The translations under genes and the position numbers were made by a program. Positions 6,507-62,998 of a stretch of DNA of 64,000 bases are shown here, in pieces. Position 1 is the stretch's first letter, and each line of letters opens with the position of its first letter. Where the stretch lies: the NCBI GenBank assembly GCA_036845225.1, contig DAIUEJ010000009.1:1316-65315 (forward strand). The letters run 5' to 3'. The notes beneath the pieces are model-generated. The model did no database searches. It saw only the letters and a list, made by a program, of their open reading frames with translations, and had not been told where the DNA came from. The DNA comes from Candidatus Anoxymicrobiaceae bacterium. Lineage in GTDB: Bacteria; Actinomycetota; Geothermincolia; Fen-727; Anoxymicrobiaceae.

Positions 6507-7445
6507 TCAGGCGTTTTCGGCTCCAAGGAGAGATTCGAGGCGGCGCATGCGCCCCTGGACCACCGCCTTCGACACCGGCGGCTCGAGGGCGCGGCCAAGT
6601 TCGGCGAGCGAAGCCTGGGGGTGGCGGAGGCGGGCCTCGGCGAGCTCCGTCAGCTCTCCGGGGGCATCCTTGAGCAGTCCCAGCGCACCCAGCCTGCCCA
6701 CGAGTTCCCTCTGCCGGAGGGAAGCCTCGGCAAGCCTGCGCGCGTTCGCGGAGTCGCAGTTCACCAGACGGTTTACCTGGTTCCGGGTCGCGTTCATGAT
6801 GGTGCGGCTCTCCCAGGAAAGGTGCGCCCCGTGCGCTCCGACGACCGCGAGGAAGTTCGATATCTGCTGGCGCTGCTTGAGGTAGAGCACCCATTGGCTG
6901 CGCCGCTCGCGCAACCCCGGATGGAGGCCGCGGCGCCTGAACAGCTCGTCGAAAGCCCTGGCCGATTCCCCCATCGCGAAGGATATCTCGAGGTCGGCCG
7001 GGCCGAACGGTTCGCTCACGTACCCGCCGCCCAGGAACGCGCCGCGCAGCGCCGACGCCGCGCAGCAGTCACTTCTGGTGAGCCGCCGCGGCACCACCTC
7101 CTCCGGCGAGAGGCTGGCGTCAAGTACTCCCAGCTCGTTGAGCACTTGATGGAACCCCGGCTGGTCCGGCAGCTCCAGGCGATAGACCGTGGCGCGCCTG
7201 GGGGAGCTGCGGGTGACTTTGACCAGCGGTGTCTCCAGGTCGAACAGCGAATGCAGGAGCGTGTAGATCTTGCGCGCGGTGTATACGCCGGACGACTCCG
7301 TCACCAGCATGTGGCCGCCGCTGCCGCGGATCGCATAGGTACCGTCCATGTGCAGGAGGGCGGAGAGCTCCGCGACCTGGCAGCAGTGCCGGCTGGCCCT
7401 GTAGTGCCCTAGCTCCTCTTTTACCGTGTGGACGCTGCTGGTCAT
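6507..7445 (-). CDS. whiA: Sporulation/cell-division transcriptional regulator WhiA
   Basis: The 312 aa product has WhiA LAGLIDADG-like N-terminal repeats and a C-terminal HTH domain. It lies immediately downstream of rapZ. Confidence 0.85.
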   Translation of the reverse strand: MTSSVHTVKEELGHYRASRHCCQVAELSALLHMDGTYAIRGSGGHMLVTESSGVYTARKIYTLLHSLFDLETPLVKVTRSSPRRATVYRLELPDQPGFHQVLNELGVLDASLSPEEVVPRRLTRSDCCAASALRGAFLGGGYVSEPFGPADLEISFAMGESARAFDELFRRRGLHPGLRERRSQWVLYLKQRQQISNFLAVVGAHGAHLSWESRTIMNATRNQVNRLVNCDSANARRLAEASLRQRELVGRLGALGLLKDAPGELTELAEARLRHPQASLAELGRALEPPVSKAVVQGRMRRLESLLGAENA

Positions 7446-8297
7446 CTACTTGTTGATGTCGCGGTGGGCCACCGAGACCGGCTGGCCTTCCTTCTTGAAC
7501 CGCCGCGCCAGTTCGTTGGCGATGACCACCGACCTGTGCCGGCCTCCGGTGCAACCGATCCCGATGGAGAGGTAAGGCCTCCGCTCGCGGAGGTAGTCCG
7601 GCAGTATGAACTCGATCAGCCCCTTGAAGCGGTCGACGAACTCCAGGGCCTCCGGCCGCTCCAGCACGAACTTCTTCACCCGCTTGTCGGTGCCCTTGCG
7701 GTCCCGCAGCTCCGGCACCCAGTAGGGGTTGGGAAGAAACCTCACGTCGAAGATGATGTCGGCGTCGAGAGGGTGGCCGTACTTGTAGCCGAACGAGAGC
7801 AGCGATATCTTGGTAGCCCTTTCGCCCTCGGCCCCCGGCAGGACGTTGAGCAGCTTGTCCCGCAGCTCGCGGACGTTCATGCCGGAGGTGTCTATCACCA
7901 CGTCCGCCCGCTCCCGGAGCGGGTCGAGCAGCTTGCGCTCCTCGGCTATCAGGCCGGCCACGCCGAGGCCCTTGCTCTCGAGCGGGTGTATGCGCCGAGT
8001 CTCAGAGAACCTGCGCAGCAACACCTCGTCTGAGGCGTTCAGGAACACAATGGTGTAAGGGATGGACTCGAGGCCCTCCAGGGCGGAGAGCACCTCGGTG
8101 AAGTTCGTGCCGCCGCGGACGTCCATCACCACCGCGATCATGGCGAACTTCTCCCCCCCGATCGGCGCGAGCTCCACCACGTTGGCGAGCAGATTCCCGG
8201 GCAGGTTGTCTATAGCGTAGTATCCCATGTCCTCGAAGTAGTTGAGCGCCTCGCTCTTGCCGGCGCCCGACATGCCCGTCACGATGACGATCTCCAA
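7446..8297 (-). CDS. rapZ: RNase adapter protein RapZ (P-loop nucleotide-binding protein YvcJ)
   Basis: The 283 aa product begins VIVTGMSGAGKSEALNYFEDMGYYAIDNLP (Walker A) and has a ...GCTGGRHRS... C-terminal motif. Confidence 0.9.
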   Translation of the reverse strand: MEIVIVTGMSGAGKSEALNYFEDMGYYAIDNLPGNLLANVVELAPIGGEKFAMIAVVMDVRGGTNFTEVLSALEGLESIPYTIVFLNASDEVLLRRFSETRRIHPLESKGLGVAGLIAEERKLLDPLRERADVVIDTSGMNVRELRDKLLNVLPGAEGERATKISLLSFGYKYGHPLDADIIFDVRFLPNPYWVPELRDRKGTDKRVKKFVLERPEALEFVDRFKGLIEFILPDYLRERRPYLSIGIGCTGGRHRSVVIANELARRFKKEGQPVSVAHRDINK

Positions 8298-10768: not shown

Positions 10769-13626
10769 CTGGCCTTCGCCGCCTTCGGCCGCCTTCGAGA
10801 GCCGCGGCCCTCGAGGACCTCGGCCAGGTACTTCCCGGTGTAAGACCGCCTGGTTGCCGCGATCTGTTCTGGCGAGCCGGTGGCGATCAGCTCCCCGCCC
10901 TTGTCGCCACCCTCGGGCCCCAGGTCGATGATATGGTCCGCCACCTTGACGACGTCCATGTTGTGCTCGACCACGACCACCGTGTTGCCGCCTTCGACCA
11001 GGCGGTCCAGCACCTCGATCAGCTTGCTGATGTCGTCGAAGTGCAGGCCGGTGGTCGGCTCGTCGAGAAGGTAGAGCGTCCTTCCGGTCGGCCTCTTGGC
11101 GAGCTCCCTCGCCAGCTTGACCCTTTGCGCTTCCCCGCCGGAGAGCGTCGGCGCCGGCTGGCCCAGCCGTACGTAGCCCAAGCCTACGTCCGACAGTATC
11201 TGGAGCTGGCGATTGATGTTCGGTATGTTTGTGAACAGGGCCATGGCCTCCTCGACCGTCAGCTCGAGTACCTCGTGGATGTTCTTGCCCTTGTAATGTA
11301 TCTCGAGCGTCTCGCGGTTGTAGCGCTTGCCCTTACACACGTCGCAGGAGACGTAGACGTCCGGCAGGAAGTGCATCTCGATCTTCACCATGCCCTCGCC
11401 TTTGCACGCCTCGCACCTGCCGCCGGCCACGTTGAAGCTGAACCTCCCCGGCTTGTAGCCGCGCACCTGCGCCTGGGGCGTGCTGGCGAAGAGCGTCCTG
11501 ACGCCGTCGAACACCTTGGTGTACGTCGCGGCGTTGGACCGCGGCGTGCGGCCGATCGGAGACTGGTCTATGTTCACGACCTTGTCTATCTCTTCGACTC
11601 CGTCTATCCCCTTGTGCCGCCCCGGAGGCGTGCGCGAGGAGGAGAGCTTGCGCCGCAGCCCGCGGTACAGCACCTCGCTCACCAGGGTGCTCTTGCCCGA
11701 CCCGCTCACGCCGGTCACGCAGGTGAAGACTCCGAGCGGGAACGAGACGTCGATGTCCTTGAGGTTGTGCTCCGTAGCTCCCCTGACCACCAGGGCCCTG
11801 TCGGTGGGGGGCCGGCGCGTCCGGGGCACAGGTATCTCCAGCTCCCCGGAGAGGTACTTGCCGGTGATAGAGCCTTTGCTGGCGATGATGTCTTCCACTG
11901 TCCCGGTGGCGACGATGTGCCCTCCATGGATGCCGGCCCCGGGGCCGATGTCCACGACGTAGTCGGCGGCGCGTATGGTGTCCTCGTCGTGCTCGACGAC
12001 TATCACGGTGTTGCCGAGGTCCCGGAGCCTCTTCAGCGTCTCTATCAGTCGTTTGTTGTCGCGCTTGTGGAGCCCCACGCTCGGCTCGTCAAGAATATAG
12101 AGGACGCCCACCAGCCCCGAGCCGATCTGTGTCGCGAGCCTGATCCTCTGAGACTCCCCGCCCGCCAGCGTGCTCGCCTGGCGCGAGAGCGTGAGGTAGT
12201 CCAGCCCCACGTCCATCAGGAACTGGAGCCTCGCCCTCACCTCCTTGAGGAGACGCCCCGCGATGGTCTTCTGCCTTGCGTCGAGCTTCAGGTCCTTGAT
12301 GAATCCGATGGCGTGCTCGACGGTCAGGTCCGACAGCTCCGAGATGTTCATGCCGCCGACCGTCACCGCGAGGCTCTCGGGGCGCAGCCGCGCTCCCCCG
12401 CAGGACGGGCAGGGCTTGACGCTCATGAACATACCTATCCTCCAGCGGGCGTACTCCGACTCGGTCTCCTTGTAGCGCCGCTCCAGGATGGGGATGACGC
12501 CTTCCCAGGTGGTGTAGTAAGTCCTCTGCCTGTTGCGGGAATCGAGGTGCCTCACCAGTATCTCGTCGTCCCCGGTGCCGAAGAGCACCATGTTCTGCGC
12601 GCGCTCGTCGAGGTCCTTGAAGGGAACCGTCAGCGGGAATCCGTATGTGTCGGCGAGCGCCTCCAGCACGCTGTAGAAGTGAGTCTGGGTCGCCGCTTCC
12701 CACGGAGCGACAGCGCCGTCGATGAGCGTCCTGTCGGGGTCCGGGACCACCAGCTCGGCATCGATCTCCAGCCGGTGACCGAGCCCGCCGCAGGTGGTGC
12801 ACGCCCCGTAGGGGTTGTTGAACGAGAACATGCGCGGGGACAGCTCGGGAAACGATATGGCGCAGTGTACACAGGAGAACTCCTCGGAAAAGATGTCGCG
12901 GCGGTCGGTTTCGTCCTGGACCGCCACCATCCCCTCCCCCAGGTGCAGCGCCGCCTCCACGGATTCGGCGACCCTGCTGCGCGCGTCCTCCTTGATGACC
13001 AGGCGGTCGACCACGGCCATTATTTCGTGTTTCTTGTTCTTGTCGAGGTCGATCTGCTCCGAGAGGTCGAACACCTCTCCGTCGACCAGCACGCGGACGT
13101 ACCCGCGGTGCCGCAGGTTCTCGAAGACCGCCGCGTGCTCGCCCTTGCGCCCCCTCACCAGCGGGGCAAGGACCATTATCTTCCTGCCCTCGCCCATCTC
13201 CATCACGAGGTCGGTTATCTGCTCGGGGGACTGCCGCGAGACAGGCCTTCCGCACTCGTAGCAGTGCGGCTCCCCGATCCGTGCGTAGAGGACGCGCAGG
13301 TAGTCGTAGATCTCGGTGACGGTGCCGACCGTGGACCGCGGGTTGGACGTCCCGGCTTTCTGGTCGATCGATATCGCTGGCGACAGGCCCTCGATGAGGT
13401 CGACGTCAGGCTTGTCCAGCTGGCCCAGGAACTGGCGCGCGTAAGACGACAGCGACTCGACGTAGCGGCGCTGGCCCTCCGCGTAGATGGTATCGAATGC
13501 GAGCGACGACTTGCCCGAGCCGCTGATGCCCGTCATCACTATCATCTTGTTCCGGGGCAGGTCGAGCTTCACGTCCTTCAGGTTATGCTCGCGCGCCCCT
13601 CTTATCTTCAGCAGTTCGTTATTCAC
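10765..13626 (-). CDS. uvrA: Excinuclease ABC subunit A
   Basis: The 953 aa product has two ABC ATPase modules ([12 protein letters not shown]..., [11 protein letters not shown]...) and zinc-finger Cys clusters. It overlaps uvrC by 4 nt. Confidence 0.97.
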
Positions 13627-15616
13627 CTGGCAGCAGTTCCTCGCTGATATGTTTGATCTCGTCCCGGAGCCTGGCCGCGTCCTCGAAGCGCAGCTCCTCC
13701 GCGAGCAGCCTCATCTCTTCCTCCATGTTCAAGAGCAGGCGCTGGAGCTGCGCGGGGGACATCCCCCTCGCCCTCTCGACGGGATCGTCGGACGGCCCCG
13801 CCCCGGCAGCCAGCGTGACCTCGAGTATGTCCCTGACCTCCTTCTGGATGGTCTGCGGGCTGATGCCGTGCTCCTCGTTGTAGAGCACCTGCTTCTCGCG
13901 CCTTCGCTGCGTCTCCTCGATGGCGCCTCTCATGGCCTCGGAAGTGTCCTGTGCGTAGAGTATCACCATGCCGCCCGCATTCCTGCTGGCCCTGCCCATC
14001 GTCTGGATCAGGCTCCGCTCGCTGCGCAGGAACCCCTGCTTGTCGGCGTCCAGGATCGCCACCAGCGAGACCTCCGGCAGGTCGAGCCCCTCGCGCAGCA
14101 GGTTTATCCCGACCAGCACGTCGAACACGCCGGCGCGCAGGTCTCGCAGGATCTCCACGCGCTCCACCGTTCCTATCTCGGAGTGGAGGTAGCGTGACTT
14201 TACCCCCATCTCGTCGAGGTACTCGGACAGCGTCTCCGACATCTTCTTGGTGAGCGTGGTCACCAGCACGCGCTCCCGCTTCACCACCCTCTCGCGTATC
14301 TCCGACATCAGGTCGTCGATCTGCCCCTCGGCGGGCCGTATCACTACGGCGGGGTCCACGAGCCCGGTGGGGCGGATCACCTGCTCCGCGACCCTCGTGC
14401 TCATCTGCATCTCGAAGTCCGCGGGCGTCGCGCTCACGAACACCACCTCGCCGACCTTGTCGAAGAACTCCTCGCGAGACAGTGGCCGGTTGTCGAGCGC
14501 GGAGGGCAGGCGGAACCCGTGCTCCACCAGGGTCTGCTTGCGCGAGCGGTCTCCGTTCAACATCCCCGAGAGCTGCGGGACGGTGATGTGCGACTCGTCG
14601 ATGAAGGTCAGCATCCCGTCGGGGAAAAAATCGATCAGGGTGTACGGCGGCTCACCCTCTTTGCGCCCCGAAAGGTGACGTGAGTAGTTCTCGATGCCGT
14701 GGCAGTAGCCGGTCTCCCGCAACATCTCGAGGTCGTACATGGTCCGCATCCTCAGCCTCTGTTCCTCGAGCAGCTTGCCCCGGGAGCGCAACAGCTCGAG
14801 GCGCGCGTCCAGCTCCTCCTCTATGCCCTTGATCGCCGCCGCCAGCTGGCTCGACGGCGTGAGAAAGTGGGTCGCCGGCCAGACCACCGTGCGGTCCAGG
14901 TCCGCCAGCACTTCACCGGTCAGGGGGTCGACCTGGGTGATGCGCTCGACGGTGTCGCCGAACATGTCCACCCTGACCGCAGCCTCGTCCCAGTATGCGG
15001 GGTAGATGTCGATCACGTCCCCGCGCACGCGGAACTTGCCGCGGTCCGGGGCGATGTCGTTCCGCTCGTACCTGATGTCGACCAGCCGTCGCAGGATGTC
15101 CTCGCGCTCGTACTCCTTGCCGACCTCGATCATCACCATCCGGTTCAGGTACTCGTCGGGCGAGCCGAGCCCGTAGATGCATGAGACAGAAGCGACGATG
15201 ATGACGTCCGGGCGGGAGAGCAGGGCGCTGGTGGCGCCGTGCCTCAGCCTGTCGATCTCGTCGTTGATGGACGAGTCCTTCTCGATGTAGGTGTCGGTGC
15301 TCGGAATGTAGGCCTCAGGCTGGTAGTAATCGTAGTAGCTCACAAAATACTCCACCGCGTTGTTCGGGAAGAAGTCCCTGAACTCCGAGTAGAGCTGCGC
15401 GGCGAGCGTCTTGTTCGGGGCAAGCACCAGCGTGGGCCTCTGCACCTCTTCGATCGCGCTCGCCATCGTGAACGTCTTCCCGGAACCCGTGACCCCGAGC
15501 AGGACCTGGTAGCGCTCGCAATCGTTCAGCCCCTCGACCAGGCTTGCTATTGCCTGCGGCTGGTCGCCCTGGGGGATGAACCGGGTCTCGAGCTTCAGTT
15601 TCGCCAAATGAGTCAC
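13619..15616 (-). CDS. uvrB: Excinuclease ABC subunit B
   Basis: The 665 aa product contains ...[10 protein letters not shown]... followed by the helicase motifs and a C-terminal UvrB/UvrC-interaction domain. Confidence 0.97.
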
Positions 15617-15827
15617 CCCGTGAAGAGTATCGCAAGAAAAGGGAGTCCCGCGCCATGCAGGACCCTGGGCGCATGATTCTAACCTTCAGGCGCGGCGCCT
15701 TCAATGACAAAGGTCAGTGCCTTCCGGGCGCCGCTCGGCGAACATGAGGGCAGGAATCAGCGTCCATTTATCTAAAACGTAAGTCAGACGGTATCCCGAC
15801 CGATCGTCACGAGAGAACGCCCACGCC

Positions 15828-16703
15828 ATGATGGAAAAAGCTTTCAGATGGGCCCTCTGCCTCCTGCTGCTGGCTGTGCTCGCGGGCGCCGGCTGCAGCG
15901 GGGGCACCGACCCTTCCGTCACCACGGTCAACGGTGTGAAGATGGTCGCGCGCGCCAACGGCCGCTATTTTCAGGTCTACAACAAGGGCGCCTGGAACTG
16001 GCACGTCGCCAAGGGCGCCAACATAGGCGCCTCGATGCCTGGGCACTGGTTCGGAGAGCTGGCGATACCGAAGAAGACCTACGCCCGATGGCTGGACCAG
16101 ATAGGAAGCATGGGCGCCAACAACATCCTCGTCTACGCGCTCATCGACCCCGGCTTCTACCAGGCGCTGGTGGAATACAACCGAGCGCACCCTGACAGAC
16201 GCATCTGGCTCATCCAGCAGGTGTGGCCCAACGATGAGAATGCGCCCGGCAACCTCTACCAGCCGGCCTACGCCAATGCTTACGAGAAGGAGATCGAGCT
16301 GGACGTCGACGCCTTGATGGGCAAGGCGAACATCGGAGAGCGGACCGGGCTGGCATGGGGCAAATATACCGTTAACGTGATGCCTTACGTCCTGGGCATG
16401 CTGATCGGCCGGGAGCTCCAGACCACCGAGGTCAAGGCTACGGACGAGCAGAACCCGCAGAAGACCACCTTCCAGGGCCGTTTTGCGCAGACCACCCCGG
16501 TCGCCAGCCCTATGGAATCATGGGTCGCGGAGATGGCCGACACCCTCGCCGCGCGCATGCGCCACTACGTGTGGGATGCCCCGACCGAGCCGCGCTTGAC
16601 GATCTCGCCGCTCGACCGGGTCTGGAACCTGAAGGTGAGTCCGGCGGCTGCCGCGCCCGGGTTCAGGACGCAAACGTACTCGTCGAAGGCGCCGCCCGTG
16701 TAG
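15828..16703 (+). CDS. Putative lipoprotein, possibly a TIM-barrel glycoside-hydrolase-like fold; function unknown
   Basis: It has a signal peptide MMEKAFRWALCLLLLAVLAGAGC with a lipobox-like Cys. The mature part (…GANNILVYALIDPGFY…IWLIQQVWPNDENAP…) loosely resembles GH5/cellulase-like families. The 3' 139 nt overlap the convergent gene on the other strand. Confidence 0.55.
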   Translation: MMEKAFRWALCLLLLAVLAGAGCSGGTDPSVTTVNGVKMVARANGRYFQVYNKGAWNWHVAKGANIGASMPGHWFGELAIPKKTYARWLDQIGSMGANNILVYALIDPGFYQALVEYNRAHPDRRIWLIQQVWPNDENAPGNLYQPAYANAYEKEIELDVDALMGKANIGERTGLAWGKYTVNVMPYVLGMLIGRELQTTEVKATDEQNPQKTTFQGRFAQTTPVASPMESWVAEMADTLAARMRHYVWDAPTEPRLTISPLDRVWNLKVSPAAAAPGFRTQTYSSKAPPV

Positions 16704-17191
16704 CCCTCGGCGAAGTACCACGTCTTCGAGGCGGCGGTCGCCGCGAACACGCAGTGGCCGCCCGGCCACCTGCCCTGGTAGTTGAAGTAGATCGGGCGCT
16801 CGACGACCAGGTCCCGCTGAAGCGACGTCAGCACGACAGACACCTCCCGGTCCTGGCCAACGGCGGCGTTGACGTCGACCGTGTACCGCGACATGGGTTT
16901 TATGGAGTAAGTCTTGAGCTGCGAGCCACCCCCCTTGAACATGAAGGTAGCGTCGATGCTGGCGGTCGTGCTCTCAGGGTTGGCGATGCACAGGTACTCC
17001 TGGAATCCGCTCCCGGTGTAGCCCTCGGCGAAGTACCAGGTGCCCGGCGCCGCTGAAGCCGTGGCCGCGATCGCCGCGCCCGGAATAAGGAGCGCCACGA
17101 TAAATGCGCAGAGGGTGCCCGCGACGACCGCCGCTGCGACGGCCGACCTCGTCCTCGGTTTCGGTAAAAGCCTGCGCTTACGCAAGGTCAC
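16565..17191 (-). CDS. Secreted/anchored protein with a tandemly duplicated TWYFAEGYTG domain; unknown function
   Basis: The N-terminus is RKRRLL + hydrophobic + AxA, a Tat- or Sec-type signal. There are two copies of a TWYFAEGYTG(S/G)(G/A)F(Q/D)EY(L/V)C(I/V)xNP module. The second copy is truncated relative to the first. The start is GTG. Confidence 0.6.
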   Translation of the reverse strand: MTLRKRRLLPKPRTRSAVAAAVVAGTLCAFIVALLIPGAAIAATASAAPGTWYFAEGYTGSGFQEYLCIANPESTTASIDATFMFKGGGSQLKTYSIKPMSRYTVDVNAAVGQDREVSVVLTSLQRDLVVERPIYFNYQGRWPGGHCVFAATAASKTWYFAEGYTGGAFDEYVCVLNPGAAAAGLTFRFQTRSSGEIVKRGSVGASHT

Positions 17192-17399
17192 AGCATACCT
17201 CGAAGCACTTTCAGGAAATTCGCGCGCGGCCGGGCCCGGACCGTTTCCCGTTATTGCGCTGACACAGAATCTGACTCTGGCACTATTTATATCGGCCGGA
17301 AGGCGGCATTCTCTTGAGCTGAGCTAGCAGAATCGGGCTCGTCAGGGGGCCGCCAGCCCCTGTTTGACCCTCACTGGCATAACTGGTAACTTGAGTGAC

Positions 17400-17663
17400 A
17401 TGACCGACTCCAAGAACTGCTGGGACATCAAGAAGTGCTCCGCCGCACAGTATCTGAACTGCAAGGCCTATCTTGAGAACAAGAACTGCTGGGAGATCTC
17501 CAACCCGCGAGGCTCGCGCAGCTTGATGCTGTGCCTTCAGATGGGCTGCCCGGTCTACGAGCTCTACATGGACGAGATCGACAAGGAGATAGAGTACAGG
17601 CTGCGCATGATGTTCCCGTTCCTCGCCAGCATCGAAGAAGGCTCCAAGCCCACTCAGGAATAG
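17400..17663 (+). CDS. Small Cys/Trp-rich protein (87 aa) with duplicated KNCW-x4-(K)C motif; unknown function
   Basis: The product begins MTDSKNCWDIKKCSAAQYLNCKAYLENKNCWEISNP...LCLQMGCPVYELY.... It has 6 Cys. Local GC is clearly lower than the surroundings. The track ORF starts at TTG 17364, and the ATG at 17400 is the more likely start. Confidence 0.5.
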   Translation: MTDSKNCWDIKKCSAAQYLNCKAYLENKNCWEISNPRGSRSLMLCLQMGCPVYELYMDEIDKEIEYRLRMMFPFLASIEEGSKPTQE

Positions 17664-18319
17664 GCGGTCGCCGCGCGCCGCGCGATCTCTTGCCAGAGCT
17701 CCTGCACCCTCAAGTGAAGGTCTTCGAGGGTCCCGTTGTTCTCGATGACGATGTCTGCCATCTCCACGCGCTTTGGATCCGGCACCTGGCTTGCGATGCG
17801 GCTGCGCGCCTCGTCCTCGATCATCTTCCGCGACTCGACGAGCCTCTTCACCCGCGCATCCTCATCGGCGGTCAGCACGACCAGGACGTCGAAGACTCCG
17901 GAGACGCCGGTGTCCACGATCAGGGCGGCGTCCAGGACCGCGGCGGGCACCTTGCCGCCTCCGAGTCCGTCAGCGTAGGAGGTGACGCGCTTCACCATCT
18001 CGGAGAAGATCGCGGGGTGCGTGATGCTGTTCAGGAGCTGGAGCCTGTCGGGCTTTCCGAAGACGAGCGCCGCGAGAGCCGCGCGGTCGATGTCTCCCCG
18101 AGAGTCGAGGATTCTGTCGCCGAACTCCTGCACGAGCTTCTGGTGGGTGGGAGTGCCGGAAAGGACCACTTCGCGCGCCACCTGATCGGCGTCGACCACG
18201 AATGCGCCGAGCCGGAGCAGCTCCCGGTCGACTTCGGTCTTCCCGGAGGCGATGCCTCCTGTCAGGCCGACGATGGTGAGCCGCTCGCCAGCGGGCCCCC
18301 ACACCTCAGGATGGCCCAA
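17654..18319 (-). CDS. coaE: Dephospho-CoA kinase
   Basis: The 221 aa product begins IVGLTGGIASGKT (P-loop) and has CoaE architecture. It lies immediately downstream of rpsA as in Actinobacteria. Confidence 0.9.
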   Translation of the reverse strand: MGHPEVWGPAGERLTIVGLTGGIASGKTEVDRELLRLGAFVVDADQVAREVVLSGTPTHQKLVQEFGDRILDSRGDIDRAALAALVFGKPDRLQLLNSITHPAIFSEMVKRVTSYADGLGGGKVPAAVLDAALIVDTGVSGVFDVLVVLTADEDARVKRLVESRKMIEDEARSRIASQVPDPKRVEMADIVIENNGTLEDLHLRVQELWQEIARRAATAYS

Positions 18320-18321
18320 AC

Positions 18322-20199
18322 CTACTCCTGCTGCCCTTTGCGCTTCATGTCGGCAAGTATGGATTCGAGCGACCCGTCTTCGCCCGCTCCTTCGCGAAGG
18401 CTCTCTTCGGCCTCGACCTCACCGGCTTCGACCGGCTCCGGCTCCTCCGATGCCTCCGCCACTTCTTCCGCCGTGGGCTCTATCGCTTCTACCGCCTCGG
18501 CAACCGCCTCGAGCTCTTCAGCCGCCTCCTCTATCGCCTCCGCTACAACGGCTTCGACGACGGCCTCCTCGACTGCTTCCTCGATAGCCTCTTCGACGAT
18601 CTCTTCAACGATAGCTTCCTCGATAGCCTCTTCGACGATCTCTTCAACGATGGCTTCCTCGATAGCCTCTTCGACGATCTCTTCAACGATGGCTTCCTCG
18701 ACGGCTTCCTCGATGGCCTCCGCCTCGGCCTCCGCGTAGGCAGCCGTAGCGCTTTCGAGCTCACCGCCCTGTTCCGCCGCAGTGACCTCCGCCTCGATGT
18801 TCTCGACCGCAGCCGCGATCTCAGCCGCCTCGGAGGCGATATCCGCCATCGCTACGGGAGGCTCGGCCGGCTCGGTGTCCGCTGCCTCCGAAATGCTCTC
18901 CTCGAACTCTTCGGCGTCCACGAGCTCGGGCTCGCCGGCAGCCTCATCCTCGTAGCGGTATTCGACCTCGCCAGGCGCGGAGAGCTGCTTGAGGCTCAGC
19001 GATATCCGACGGCGGTCGAGGTCGATGTCGATTATCTTCGCGTCCACCTCTTCGCCGACGGACACGACCTCTTCGGGGAACTCGATGTGCTCCCAGGCGA
19101 GCTCGGATATATGGACGAGCCCTTCCACGCCCGGCGCTATCTCGACGAAGGCCCCGAACGGCACCAGCTTGGTGACCTTGCCGTGTACCGTCGACCCTGC
19201 CGGCTTCTCCTTGGCGAGCTTCTCCCAAGGGTCCTCCTGCGCCTTCTTCAGCGACAGCGAGACCCGCTCGCGCTCGAGGTCCACGTCCAGTATCTCGACG
19301 GTGACCTCGTCCCCTACGGCGAGCACTTCGGAAGGATGGTCGACGTGGCTCCAGGACAGTTCCGAGATGTGGATCAGCCCGTCCACCCCGCCGAGGTCGA
19401 CGAACGCGCCGAAGTTCACGATGCTCGACACGGTGCCGGCATGCTTCGAGCCCTTCTCCAGGCTCTCCAGGAACTCCTTGCGCTCGGTCGACTTCTGCTT
19501 CTCCAGGTACGCCCGGCGCGACAGGACCACGTTGTTCCTGTTCTTGTCGAGCTCGATTATCTTGGCCTCCAGCGATTGTCCCAGGAACTGGCTGAGGTCT
19601 TTCACACGCCTCATGTCCACCAGCGACGCCGGCAGGAACCCGCGCAGGCCGATGTCCAGGATGAGGCCTCCCTTGACGACCTCGATGACCTCACCCTCCA
19701 CTATGCCGTCCTCGTCCTTGATCCGCTCGATGTTGCCCCAGGCACGCTCGTACTGGGCCCTCTTCTTGGAGAGGATGAGGCGGCCTTCCTTGTCCTCCTT
19801 CTGGAGGACGAGCGCCTCGAGTTCATCTCCGGGCTGGACTATCTCCGCCGGCTTGACGTCGTACCGGATCGACAGCTCGCGCGCCGGTATCACGCCTTCC
19901 GATTTGTATCCTATGTCGAGGAGGACCTCCTCCTTGTCGACCCTCACCACCGTCCCGTGCACGATGTCGCCTTCGTTGAATATCTTGATAGTGCCATCGT
20001 AGTCGGGCACTTTCTGGCTCTCCTCTGGCGGCAGTCCGAGGCTCGCCAGCGACTCCCTTGCCTCGGCGCCGGTCAAAAGGCTCTCTTCGTCTTCGTCCAT
20101 CTCCCTTGCGTCCGTCTCCGCAGGTTGCGCAGTCTCTTCCATCGGTGTCTCGTCGGCGTTTGCAGCGTCGTCAGTGGTGTTCAGGTCCTCGTCTGTCAT
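18322..20199 (-). CDS. rpsA: 30S ribosomal protein S1 with acidic N- and C-terminal extensions
   Basis: It has four S1 domains (…GDIVHGTVVRVDKEEVLLDIGYKSEGVIP…). The likely start is ATG 20199, preceded by the RBS GGAAGGA; the track start 20217 is TTG. The C-terminal about 150 aa are a Glu/Ala/Ile/Val low-complexity tail. Confidence 0.9.
   Translation of the reverse strand: MTDEDLNTTDDAANADETPMEETAQPAETDAREMDEDEESLLTGAEARESLASLGLPPEESQKVPDYDGTIKIFNEGDIVHGTVVRVDKEEVLLDIGYKSEGVIPARELSIRYDVKPAEIVQPGDELEALVLQKEDKEGRLILSKKRAQYERAWGNIERIKDEDGIVEGEVIEVVKGGLILDIGLRGFLPASLVDMRRVKDLSQFLGQSLEAKIIELDKNRNNVVLSRRAYLEKQKSTERKEFLESLEKGSKHAGTVSSIVNFGAFVDLGGVDGLIHISELSWSHVDHPSEVLAVGDEVTVEILDVDLERERVSLSLKKAQEDPWEKLAKEKPAGSTVHGKVTKLVPFGAFVEIAPGVEGLVHISELAWEHIEFPEEVVSVGEEVDAKIIDIDLDRRRISLSLKQLSAPGEVEYRYEDEAAGEPELVDAEEFEESISEAADTEPAEPPVAMADIASEAAEIAAAVENIEAEVTAAEQGGELESATAAYAEAEAEAIEEAVEEAIVEEIVEEAIEEAIVEEIVEEAIEEAIVEEIVEEAIEEAVEEAVVEAVVAEAIEEAAEELEAVAEAVEAIEPTAEEVAEASEEPEPVEAGEVEAEESLREGAGEDGSLESILADMKRKGQQE
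18568..18716 (-). repeat. 39-bp tandem repeat (about 3.5 copies) inside the rpsA 3' end, encoding (EAIVEEIVEEAIE)n
   Basis: The unit cgatagcctcttcgacgatctcttcaacgat(g/a)gcttcct recurs at about 18582, 18621 and 18660. Confidence 0.8.
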
Positions 20200-20350
20200 C
20201 GTTGTTTTTCCTTCCAATAGCCGGTACGTACGCTATATAGAAACACATACCTTTTGACCTCGCAAGTTGGCCGCGCGCGGCCTCTCGCGGCCGGTCGGCG
20301 GGTGGGTGCAGGGTGCGGCTCTCGGGCTCGTCACGCATGGCGTCATGGGA

Positions 20351-23113: not shown

Positions 23114-23851
23114 TCACACGAACCTTGATGCTCCTGACGGGCAGTGTGTCACGCACAGGCCGCATCCGTAGCACCTGCCGACCCGAGCTTTACCGTCCTC
23201 ACCGACAGTCCTCTCCTCGAACGGGCACACCTCGACACAGCGGCCGCAGCCTTCACAGCCCGCAGCATGCACATACGACCTCATCAGGCCCCTGTGAAAC
23301 GGGTAACGATCCGTGCCGTAGTGCGCCCGGGACAGCAAGGGCAGGCAGCCGTCCGAGCAGCAGTTGCAGATGACGAAGTAGCTGCCGCCGCTCCCGGTGT
23401 CGAGGTGGGCATACGCTATCTGCGCGAGCCCCTTCCGGTGGCAATCGTTACAGAGGGAGAGCGCCTCGTCCACGCCGATCTCCCGGTAATCTTCGGGAAA
23501 GAGACCGGTCCAGACCCCAAAGCCCGTCCGGATGACTATGTCGGTCTCCAGCGGATGGGAGCATCCGGCGTGGGCGAGCCTGCAGCGGCAGGGCCCGACC
23601 GCTACCCGCGAGCCTTGCTTGAGGAATCCTTCGAGCTCGACCGGCGACAGCGGCGTTCCGGCTATGCCCCACTTCGCGGACGGGTAGGCGAGCGTCCAGT
23701 AGACGAGCTCGCTCACGGCGCGATGACGCATCGCCCGGCTGGAAAGCAGCCGGTAGAGTATCGAAAGGAGTCGCACCTCGTGGCGGGCATACAGCCCCAG
23801 GATGAAGAGCCTGGTCGGGCTTTCCTCTCCGGCTGTGATGTGTGCAAGCAT
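23114..23851 (-). CDS. Cys-rich iron-sulfur protein with two C-terminal 4Fe-4S ferredoxin motifs; function unknown
   Basis: It contains CEGCGRCVEVCP and CYGCGLCVTHCP, plus an upstream CRC…C…CNDC…CNCCSDGC cluster. The track ORF (to 24019) runs antisense across a tRNA. A start at MLAHITAGEE (about 23851, with RBS GGAGCG) or at MGYY (about 23893) is more plausible. Confidence 0.6.
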   Translation of the reverse strand: MLAHITAGEESPTRLFILGLYARHEVRLLSILYRLLSSRAMRHRAVSELVYWTLAYPSAKWGIAGTPLSPVELEGFLKQGSRVAVGPCRCRLAHAGCSHPLETDIVIRTGFGVWTGLFPEDYREIGVDEALSLCNDCHRKGLAQIAYAHLDTGSGGSYFVICNCCSDGCLPLLSRAHYGTDRYPFHRGLMRSYVHAAGCEGCGRCVEVCPFEERTVGEDGKARVGRCYGCGLCVTHCPSGASRFV

Positions 23852-23897
23852 TGGCGCTCCGTGACGGGTATTCCAGTTGCTATAATATCCCATGATG

Positions 23898-23985
23898 TGC
23901 CGAAGTGGCGGAATGGTAGACGCGCTGGTCTCAAAAACCAGTGGGGTGACACCCCGTCCCGGTTCGAGTCCGGGCTTCGGCACCA
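23898..23985 (+). tRNA. tRNA-Leu (anticodon CAA)
   Basis: The sequence is GCCGAAGTGGCGGAATGGTAGACGCGCTGGTCTCAAAAACCAGTGGGGTGACACCCCGTCCCGGTTCGAGTCCGGGCTTCGGCACCA. The acceptor pairs GCCGAAG/CTTCGGC. It has a 3-bp D stem as in Leu tRNAs, the anticodon loop CTCAAAA, a long variable arm, a T-arm with TTCGAGT, and an encoded CCA. It is nearly identical to E. coli tRNA-Leu. Confidence 0.9.
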
Positions 23986-24088
23986 GCACTCGTTCAACGA
24001 CTCTGCAGCACCCTGCCACAGACGGACACTTACCGCGAGTGGGCGCAATGAAGAACGTTCACGGTTGGCGGGCCTGAGACGGGGTGGG

Positions 24089-59818: not shown

Positions 59819-59826
59819 TCGAAAAG

Positions 59827-59940
<114 letters not shown>

Positions 59941-59995
59941 TCTTTTTTTGTGGTGCCCTCGCACCCTCAAAGCTACACAGCGTATCAGAAGGTCG

Positions 59996-62998
<3,003 letters not shown>

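Follow-up and report, generated by a model that had tools for sequence, protein, structure and literature searches.

A conserved six-cysteine protein encoded beside coaE in Candidatus Anoxymicrobiaceae: a probable compact branch of the two-CW superfamily

Introduction

The WhiB-like (Wbl) proteins of Actinobacteria are 80-100 residues long and combine a Cys-rich half with a partner-binding or basic/acidic tail. The two-CW proteins, described by the NCBIfam model NF045718 (two_CW_domain, curated cutoff 35 bits), are small (about 100 residues), stand-alone, cytoplasmic proteins whose hosts are anaerobes. Here we analyze a small Cys-rich gene that shares features with both groups. It lies on the plus strand of a 64,000-nucleotide stretch of DNA from a Candidatus Anoxymicrobiaceae bacterium (assembly GCA_036845225.1, contig DAIUEJ010000009.1), referred to below as ‘the window’, to which all coordinates refer. 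We find that it is a real gene of native origin, set out where it starts and how its promoter is built, and show that it is remotely homologous to the two-CW proteins.

The likeness to Wbl proteins is in logic only: both are small, Cys-rich, actinobacterial, highly conserved and monocistronic, and both consist of a Cys-rich half followed by a tail. However, there is no sequence relationship between them. The small protein has six Cys rather than four, with a different spacing, and it lacks the C-x2-C-x5-C and G[VI]WGG motifs; none of the three marks by which we assessed Wbl membership (a match to Pfam Whib, the four-Cys motif and the G[VI]WGG turn) was found in it. The resemblance to two-CW proteins is one of sequence, and is the main subject of what follows.

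Results

The small gene encodes a conserved protein

The plus-strand open reading frame (ORF) 17364..17663 has a translation that includes MTDSKNCWDIKKCSAAQYLNCKAYLENKNCWEISNPRGSRSLMLCLQMGCPVYELYMDEIDKEIEYRLRMMFPFLASIEEGSKPTQE. From ATG 17400 to the stop codon at 17661-17663 it encodes a product of 87 residues (10.2 kDa) with six Cys in the spacing C-x5-C-x7-C-x8-C-x14-C-x4-C, two Trp and zero His. A sequence-only reading of this DNA had drawn attention to the ORF for its two KNCW(D/E)I half-sites, six Cys and acidic C-terminus, and all of these are present in the translation. With pI values of 8.6 and 4.4, the N-terminal part is basic and the C-terminal part acidic.

A homologue search returned 57 proteins with 66-100% identity, all from metagenomes or metagenome-assembled genomes (MAGs), for example that of Candidatus Anoxymicrobium japonicum. 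A scan of GTDB species representatives likewise found orthologues in MAGs only, labelled Candidatus Anoxymicrobiaceae, Candidatus Geothermincolia, Actinomycetota and, in a few cases, Acidimicrobiales/Acidimicrobium or ‘Ca. Geohydrothermomicrobium’. Among 34 aligned homologues the residues M1, C7, W8, C13, C21, C30, W31, P36, R37, C45, G49, C50 and Y53 are invariant, as are R67, L68, M71, P73, F74 and L75 near the C-terminus. The sequence-only reading had made its case depend on conservation of the Cys and Trp positions; all six Cys and both Trp are thus invariant.

Over 21 orthologous loci (210 pairs) the median pairwise ratio of nonsynonymous to synonymous substitution rates (dN/dS) is 0.14, synonymous sites being almost saturated, and variable alignment columns are distributed 48/38/81 over the three codon positions. 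This argues against a spurious ORF; the gene is real and under strong purifying selection. In the same loci the small protein is 72-89% identical, compared with 72-85% for UvrB and 46-68% for CoaE, which puts its conservation roughly on a par with that of UvrB and above that of CoaE.

Relation to the two-CW family

We next consider what kind of protein this is. A Pfam scan gave no family at E<=10. The profile search that the sequence-only reading had suggested as a check gave, in NCBIfam, a sub-threshold match to two_CW_domain: 15.1 bits (E 0.022), with residues 5-32 on profile positions 1-47 of 80, which falls short of the curated 35 bits.

Two-CW proteins for comparison were retrieved with a probe peptide that was composed to follow the two-CW motif and is not a database sequence. 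The probe retrieved 2,818 clusters (at 90% identity), mostly of 97-105 residues. Some are named ‘two-CW domain-containing protein’ by NCBI (from Methanosphaerula subterraneus and Bacillota MAGs), and the five that were checked scored 112-119 bits on NF045718. Unnamed matches include Desulfobulbaceae and Bacteroidetes, and with Bacillota also among the named members the earlier description of the family as mainly archaeal is not supported. An alignment of verified two-CW proteins (A4) shows seven invariant Cys and invariant Gly-rich loops.

When an alignment of the wider small-protein family (A3, described below) was compared with A4 using hhalign, the two matched with a probability of 94% (E 1.4e-7) and with their Cys in register. 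The pairs between the small protein and the canonical two-CW protein P0158 are C7/C6, C13/C12, C21/C27, C30/C48, C45/C71 and C50/C74, so that the CW motifs C7-W8 and C30-W31 fall on C6-W7 and C48-W49. The close orthologues alone gave a probability of 76% (E 2.3e-5). The suspected two-CW resemblance is therefore real but remote, and it stands below the NF045718 cutoff.

The shared motif order is N-C-W-E-x3-C ... C-[P/K]-A ... C-W ... C-x2/4-C-x-[F/V]-Y, followed by a C-terminal helix. Within it, the order N-C-W-E ... C-W is kept, with both CW motifs invariant in close orthologues; the wider family keeps C30 and W31 in every member and shows at least 90% conservation of C7 and W8. The Gly-rich loops of two-CW proteins (GREPGG; GxNGGR; GGKVQG) are deleted, such that the patterns C-G-R-x-P-G-G, G-x-N-G-G-R and G-T-x-C-G-G fall on gaps of 7, 12 and 8 columns and the CW-to-CW spacing is shortened from 42 residues to 23. 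The last Cys pair is C-x4-C here and C-x2-C in two-CW proteins. Of the seven two-CW Cys (C6, C12, C27, C48, C56, C71 and C74 in P0158) the small protein has six. The equivalent of the fifth, C56, is Gly38 in all but one of 34 orthologues (P0053 has Cys there, and P0056 has Cys at position 39), whereas the distant relatives P0058 and P0060 have Cys at this position. Only the small protein adds the invariant RLxxMFPFL motif, which is absent from P0058, P0060 and two-CW proteins, and a fixed position beside coaE. On these alignments we assign the small protein to a compact, divergent branch of the two-CW superfamily, which would have lost the loops and one Cys and gained a clade-specific tail.

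The two half-sites suggest a duplicated module, a reading that comes from inspection of the motifs and is weakly supported by comparing halves. The N-terminal half of the small-protein family matches the N-terminal half of two-CW (E 5.6e-5), and the C-terminal half the C-terminal half (E 9e-5), better than the crossed pairs. Within the small-protein family the two halves match each other at E 2e-4 with a probability of 21%, and hhalign detected no internal duplication within two-CW proteins.

Searched exhaustively with the profile, 1.84 billion cluster representatives gave 27 matches. BspA/DUF285-like repeat proteins among these (P0073, P0076, P0081, P0083) were discarded as repeat-driven false positives, as their ‘NSWDVSNV’ resembles ‘NCWEVSN’. 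What remains is a sparse unnamed family of proteins of 60-290 residues (P0058-P0090; E 2e-16 to 3e-4 with the orthologue profile), with the core CWEIKxC(P/S)AxxYxxCxAY-x5-6-CWE...(C)...C-x2/4-CP(V/I)Y. Weak NF045718 matches were found in 14 of 24 members (best E 0.0012), none at the cutoff. These proteins are direct relatives with the same compact spacing, and one of them, P0060 (40% identity, seven Cys), is likewise found at the coaE/uvrB junction, in a lineage further removed. They differ in that most have 7-8 Cys (six are common to nearly all, and most of the distant members have one or two more), in the lack of the RLxxMFPFL tail and in their genomic contexts. Tandem duplications occur in P0059, P0062, P0084, P0085 and P0087, one member has an N-terminal transmembrane helix, and in some an N-terminal region of about 135 residues, faintly similar to MarR_2 (E 0.068), precedes two fused copies. 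P0058 precedes a cheW-cheW-MCP-cheA-cheB operon (MCP, methyl-accepting chemotaxis protein), and no common partner gene was seen in the contexts of the distant relatives.

Structure prediction with AlphaFold2 (AF2) was poor when only close orthologues were supplied, with a predicted local distance difference test score (pLDDT) of 63. With distant relatives added, the mean pLDDT rose to 79.8, with 83-90 over residues 11-70. The model shows short helices and loops in the Cys-rich part, and further helices are predicted at residues 51-71 and 74-81. A Foldseek search of the PDB with the model gave no match, and PDB sequence-profile searches with alignments A3, A4 and A5 found nothing; by these profile searches neither the small-protein family nor the two-CW proteins have a sequence relative in the PDB. 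The two-CW family has no Pfam entry either.

A small, Cys-rich protein could also be a ribosomally synthesised peptide precursor, modified and exported, as the sequence-only reading had proposed. Like SCIFF/ranthipeptide precursors it has six Cys within about 45 residues (44 by our count), and radical SAM enzymes make up 3 of 81 ORFs flanking true two-CW genes. However, the protein is twice as long as such precursors, has a helical C-terminal half that is predicted to be folded (pLDDT of the domain about 80), matches no NCBIfam or Pfam precursor family and is conserved uniformly, without a leader/core split. No conserved radical SAM maturase, protease or transporter lies beside any orthologue in 23 loci. 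With purifying selection acting over the whole length, we regard the precursor reading as scarcely tenable.

Start site and promoter

Leaderless mRNAs and a TANNNT -10 element are established features of Actinobacteria (PMC6448022; PMC4633059). In mycobacteria TANNNT is the preferred SigA -10, lying at -6 to -13 from the transcription start site (TSS) (PMC6448022), and leaderless transcripts make up about a quarter of mRNAs (PMC6448022; PMC4633059). An mRNA was classed as leaderless where a TANNNT -10 places the TSS on the start codon or within 5 nt of it and no Shine-Dalgarno sequence is present (PMC6448022).

The region upstream of the small gene matches this description. The architecture TTGACC, 17 nt, TGnTAnnnT, 6-10 nt, ATG was found by regular expression in 20 of 23 loci including the window, where seven nt separate the extended -10 (ending at 17392) from ATG 17400. 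TTGACC stands at 17 nt in 18 of these 20, and the other two have TTGCAA at 17 nt or TTGACC at 18 nt; shuffled sequences gave the architecture at a rate of 0.16%. A 40%-identical orthologue in L011 has TGCTAGAAT, then 7 nt, then ATG. In 20 of the 23 loci the TAnnnT element stops 6-10 nt short of the ATG, and no Shine-Dalgarno sequence fits ATG 17400; this conserved placement implies a leaderless mRNA, with the TSS probably on the AUG or within 3 nt of it (a leader of 0-3 nt). A generic scan for E. coli-type sigma-70 promoters did not call this promoter, because TAACTT agrees with TATAAT at only three of six positions.

The promoter also bears on the start codon. TTG 17364, which had been offered as an alternative start, lies within the conserved -35 box. 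All homologues begin at the equivalent of ATG 17400, and extensions upstream of M1 are not conserved among the 34 aligned sequences. On this comparative evidence we place the true start at ATG 17400. Conservation at the level of UvrB, together with a strong constitutive-type promoter, suggests a core function.

Genomic neighbourhood and origin

The local GC content is low (0.55-0.58 here; window 0.64), as had been pointed out, and a foreign origin had been suggested on that basis. We find no support for acquisition by horizontal transfer or on a mobile element. The overall GC of the gene (0.557) is indeed below that of the window, but its GC at third codon positions (GC3), 0.86, is like that of its neighbours (coaE 0.86, rpsA 0.80, uvrB 0.91, polA 0.87, uvrA 0.89). 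The deficit is confined to positions 1 and 2 (GC1 0.43, GC2 0.36), and is explained by an amino-acid composition rich in Lys, Asn, Ile, Met and Tyr.

Gene order points the same way. Convergent coaE lies immediately downstream of the small gene in 23 of 23 related loci, and rpsA lies beyond coaE in 21 of them, that is, wherever the fetched flank extends far enough. Upstream, uvrB is adjacent and divergent in 15 of the 23. MAGs of Candidatus Anoxymicrobiaceae/Geothermincolia share the order polA-rpsA-coaE, small gene, uvrB, with the position fixed down to 40% identity. Scans of the small protein against PHROG gave nothing credible (best E 0.019, 13 bits) and against PADLOC zero matches. Codon-position GC and synteny refute a horizontal origin, to which we give next to no probability, and they indicate that the gene is native and vertically inherited.

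The 3' overlap with coaE, estimated earlier at about 10 nt, is exactly 10 nt. It also occurs in L001, L004, L006 and L007, and other loci have a small gap, so the overlap is frequent, not universal. Given this overlap, the invariance of convergent coaE in 23 loci and the lack of a convincing terminator between the two genes, one could imagine a role at the RNA level, in which convergent transcription into coaE/rpsA acts by antisense or transcriptional interference and the peptide is secondary. Yet it is the amino-acid sequence that is selected (dN/dS 0.14, invariant Cys and Trp), which argues that the protein itself matters; moreover, homologues elsewhere sit in other contexts, and in several loci a gap of up to ~140 nt replaces the overlap. 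We therefore consider an RNA-level role very improbable. A terminator-like hairpin on the minus strand at 17504-17488 was rejected as a by-product of palindromic CWEIS codons, within chance expectation.

On the other side of the small gene, the ORF 16565..17191 (minus strand) is an N-terminal fragment of a DUF5719 protein, the secreted repeat protein whose co-occurrence with the small gene had been suggested as a check. A DUF5719 homologue adjoins the small gene in only three of the 23 related loci (L001, L016 and L017) besides the window. We conclude that the DUF5719 gene was inserted between the small gene and uvrB in a single sublineage and is not a partner; a linkage between the two is not supported.

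This flank has further peculiarities. The convergent ORFs 15828..16703 (plus strand, lipoprotein-like) and 16565..17191 overlap by 139 nt, and both look truncated. Positions 16250-16583 of the window correspond to 8-341 of L001, and 16586-17039 to 7186-7639. At this junction, near 16584, the window lacks ~6.8 kb present in L001, through either a deletion or an assembly join. The additional ~6.8 kb of L001 holds the rest of a 783-residue gene, a GT2 protein, a HEAT-repeat protein, a response regulator, a PAS-HisKA kinase and most of a DUF5719-GH17 protein. At the opposite end of the conserved block, one related genome carries a phage-type integrase just beyond polA (L007 13856-15043), which suggests that the polA-distal flank is an integration hotspot. 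The coordinates of the small gene, its signals and its convergent neighbour are collected in Table 1.

Table 1. Positions of the small gene, its predicted signals and protein regions, and coaE in the window
Feature	Position	Strand	Evidence
-35 hexamer TTGACC; its first half is the ‘TTG start’ of the mechanical ORF	17364..17369	+	Cross-locus conservation
Extended -10 element TGgTAACTT (TGn + TAnnnT)	17384..17392	+	TGnTAnnnT in 20/23 loci
Coding sequence, 87 residues + stop	17400..17663	+	M1 invariant, dN/dS 0.14, GC3 0.86, 57 homologues
Compact two-CW-like Cys6 domain, residues 5-53, KNCW..C..C..NCW....C....CPVY	17412..17558	+	hhalign, weak NF045718 matches, AF2 pLDDT
First CW half-site KNCWDIKKC, residues 5-13 (C7, W8, C13)	17412..17438	+	Invariant; pairs with two-CW NCWEFKKC
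Second CW half-site KNCWEISN, residues 28-35 (C30, W31)	17481..17504	+	Invariant even in wider family; pairs with two-CW GRxCWAxxGT half
Clade-specific C-terminal helical region and acidic tail	17559..17639	+	Invariant motif, predicted helices
Invariant RLxxMFPFL motif, acidic tail after it	17598-17624	+	34 orthologues
3'-end overlap of small gene (+) and coaE (-), exactly 10 nt	17654..17663		ORF coordinates
coaE (dephospho-CoA kinase), convergent neighbour	17654..18319	-	Pfam CoaE E 2.5e-48

Other features of the window

The uvrB gene lies at 13619..15616. Its promoter (minus strand, ~15620-15705) consists of TTGAAG, 17 nt and TAGAAT, followed almost at once by a conserved hairpin, AGGGTCCTGC-atggc-GCGGGACTCC (-15.2 kcal/mol), and a U-tract. 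This terminator-like leader hairpin recurs, with compensatory changes in its stem, in about 11 of 15 related loci and has no Rfam match at the gathering threshold.

The rpsA gene (18322..20217, minus strand) encodes an S1 protein whose C-terminal tail (18322-18760) is long, acidic and internally repetitive (…EEAIVEEIVEEAIEEAIVEEIVEEAIEE…), giving rise to strong GC/AT skew and to spurious long ORFs on the opposite strand. A tRNA gene at 23899-23982 (plus strand; Rfam, 60.8 bits) overlaps the 5' part of the mechanical ORF 23114..24019 (minus strand), which encodes a Cys-rich protein with ferredoxin-type CxxCxxCxxxCP motifs; the real start of that ORF must therefore lie further downstream. At the end of the window are 5S and 23S rRNA genes (59826-62994, minus strand; Rfam), usable for phylogenetic placement.

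Discussion

Metal binding, the type of cofactor and a sensor or adaptor role are all plausible for this protein on the strength of its sequence. Six invariant Cys in a cytoplasmic module of ~50 residues with little regular secondary structure argue for a Cys-ligated metal centre, as do the aromatic residue beside two of the ligands and the ‘CP’ signature at the last Cys. The reading we favour, to which we assign slightly better than even probability, is that this native, leaderless SigA-type gene encodes a compact two-CW Cys6 metal-centre protein with a docking helix and a sensor or adaptor role. A strong, conserved SigA-type promoter would give a leaderless mRNA and from it an 87-residue cytoplasmic protein. 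Residues 5-53 would form a shortened two-CW domain, an internally duplicated ‘CW...C...C’ module, in which the six invariant Cys most likely ligate a putative metal centre, with an Fe-S cluster favoured over zinc. Residues 54-80 would form the clade-specific amphipathic helix with RLxxMFPFL, most likely the element through which the protein docks onto a conserved partner. The whole might act as a small redox- or metal-responsive sensor or adaptor, following the logic of WhiB-like proteins while being unrelated to them.

The preference for Fe-S over Zn is a weak one. The protein has no CxxC knuckles and no His, and it has ‘CP’ at the last ligand; in addition, the named carriers (Methanosphaerula, Methanocella, Desulfobulbaceae, Anoxymicrobium) are all anaerobes, which also weakly favours Fe-S. 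The main rival to a redox sensor is a zinc-stabilised small nucleic-acid-binding regulator of the divergent uvrB-uvrA-uvrC operon or of other housekeeping genes. Such a role would suit the basic Cys-rich N-terminal half, and Cys-only sites are able to bind Zn. The small gene and uvrB also share an intergenic region of 160-210 nt in the 15 related loci where they are divergent. However, the missing CxxC knuckles are typical of zinc ribbons and fingers, no Pfam zinc-finger family matched, and no operator-like conserved motif was seen around either the small-gene or the uvrB promoter. Furthermore, insertions break the uvrB adjacency in the window, L001, L016 and L017, with the small gene retained. 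We think a zinc regulator unlikely.

The metal-centre sensor reading draws on the surroundings of relatives as well. Of the Pfam families in 81 ORFs that flank 50 true two-CW genes, Response_reg (7), PAS (6), GAF (5) and MCPsignal (2) were the commonest. Methanosphaerula has a pair of presumed paralogues, each of them converging on a receiver-domain gene next to a GAF histidine kinase, and P0111 lies between a gene for a response regulator-GAF protein and genes for PAS-MCP and PAS-histidine kinase proteins. These neighbours, together with the che operon behind P0058 and the MarR_2-like fusions noted above, weakly suggest a sensing or adaptor role; the remaining contexts show no such relation. 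The Methanosphaerula subterraneus locus (CP170508.1) contains two 100-residue genes 1.4 kb apart (L033 3347-3649 and 5001-5303), of which the second is P0158 and the first is a presumed paralogue by size only; each is convergent with its own 121-residue receiver-domain gene, beside a hybrid GAF histidine kinase, so that a unit of two genes is repeated and the two may form a functional pair.

Several points weigh against this reading. Searches of the PDB gave neither a solved nor a matching structure, and full-text literature searches for two-CW or for the motif strings turned up no relevant paper on the family. In this clade Gly38 replaces the fifth two-CW Cys, such that the ligand set may differ. 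The enrichment of signalling neighbours is modest, has no background control and comes from distant relatives, while the neighbours of the orthologues themselves are housekeeping genes and include no signalling partner. Finally, the winged helix-turn-helix reading of the N-terminal fusions relies on an E value of 0.068, and a PDB profile search was empty.

The findings bear first on annotation. Three points are corrected: where the gene starts, its supposed foreign origin, and the status of the DUF5719 gene, which is an insertion and not a partner. The two-CW family, of which one probe retrieved more than 2,800 clusters at 90% identity, is a large one and is widespread in methanogens, Bacillota, Desulfobulbaceae and other anaerobes; current two-CW models miss this divergent actinobacterial branch. 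The small protein is a minimal version, with a ~50-residue six-Cys domain, and as such would be a convenient target for determination of cofactor and structure.

For the organism, which belongs to an anaerobic and uncultured lineage of Actinomycetota, conservation at the level of UvrB, a chromosomal position fixed throughout that lineage and a near-consensus leaderless promoter point to a core cellular component rather than an accessory peptide. More speculatively, the two-CW superfamily as a whole could be an unrecognised class of small stand-alone Fe-S or metal redox or gas sensors of anaerobes, with the member described here being a core, constitutive WhiB analogue that docks through its RLxxMFPFL helix; this wider proposal we hold to be distinctly unlikely. 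If it were true, the docking target might be, for example, RNA polymerase or a sigma factor, or proteins of the nucleotide-excision or CoA pathways that are encoded alongside, and the Geothermincolia/Anoxymicrobiaceae would possess a protein functionally analogous to the WhiB-like proteins that is evolutionarily independent of them.

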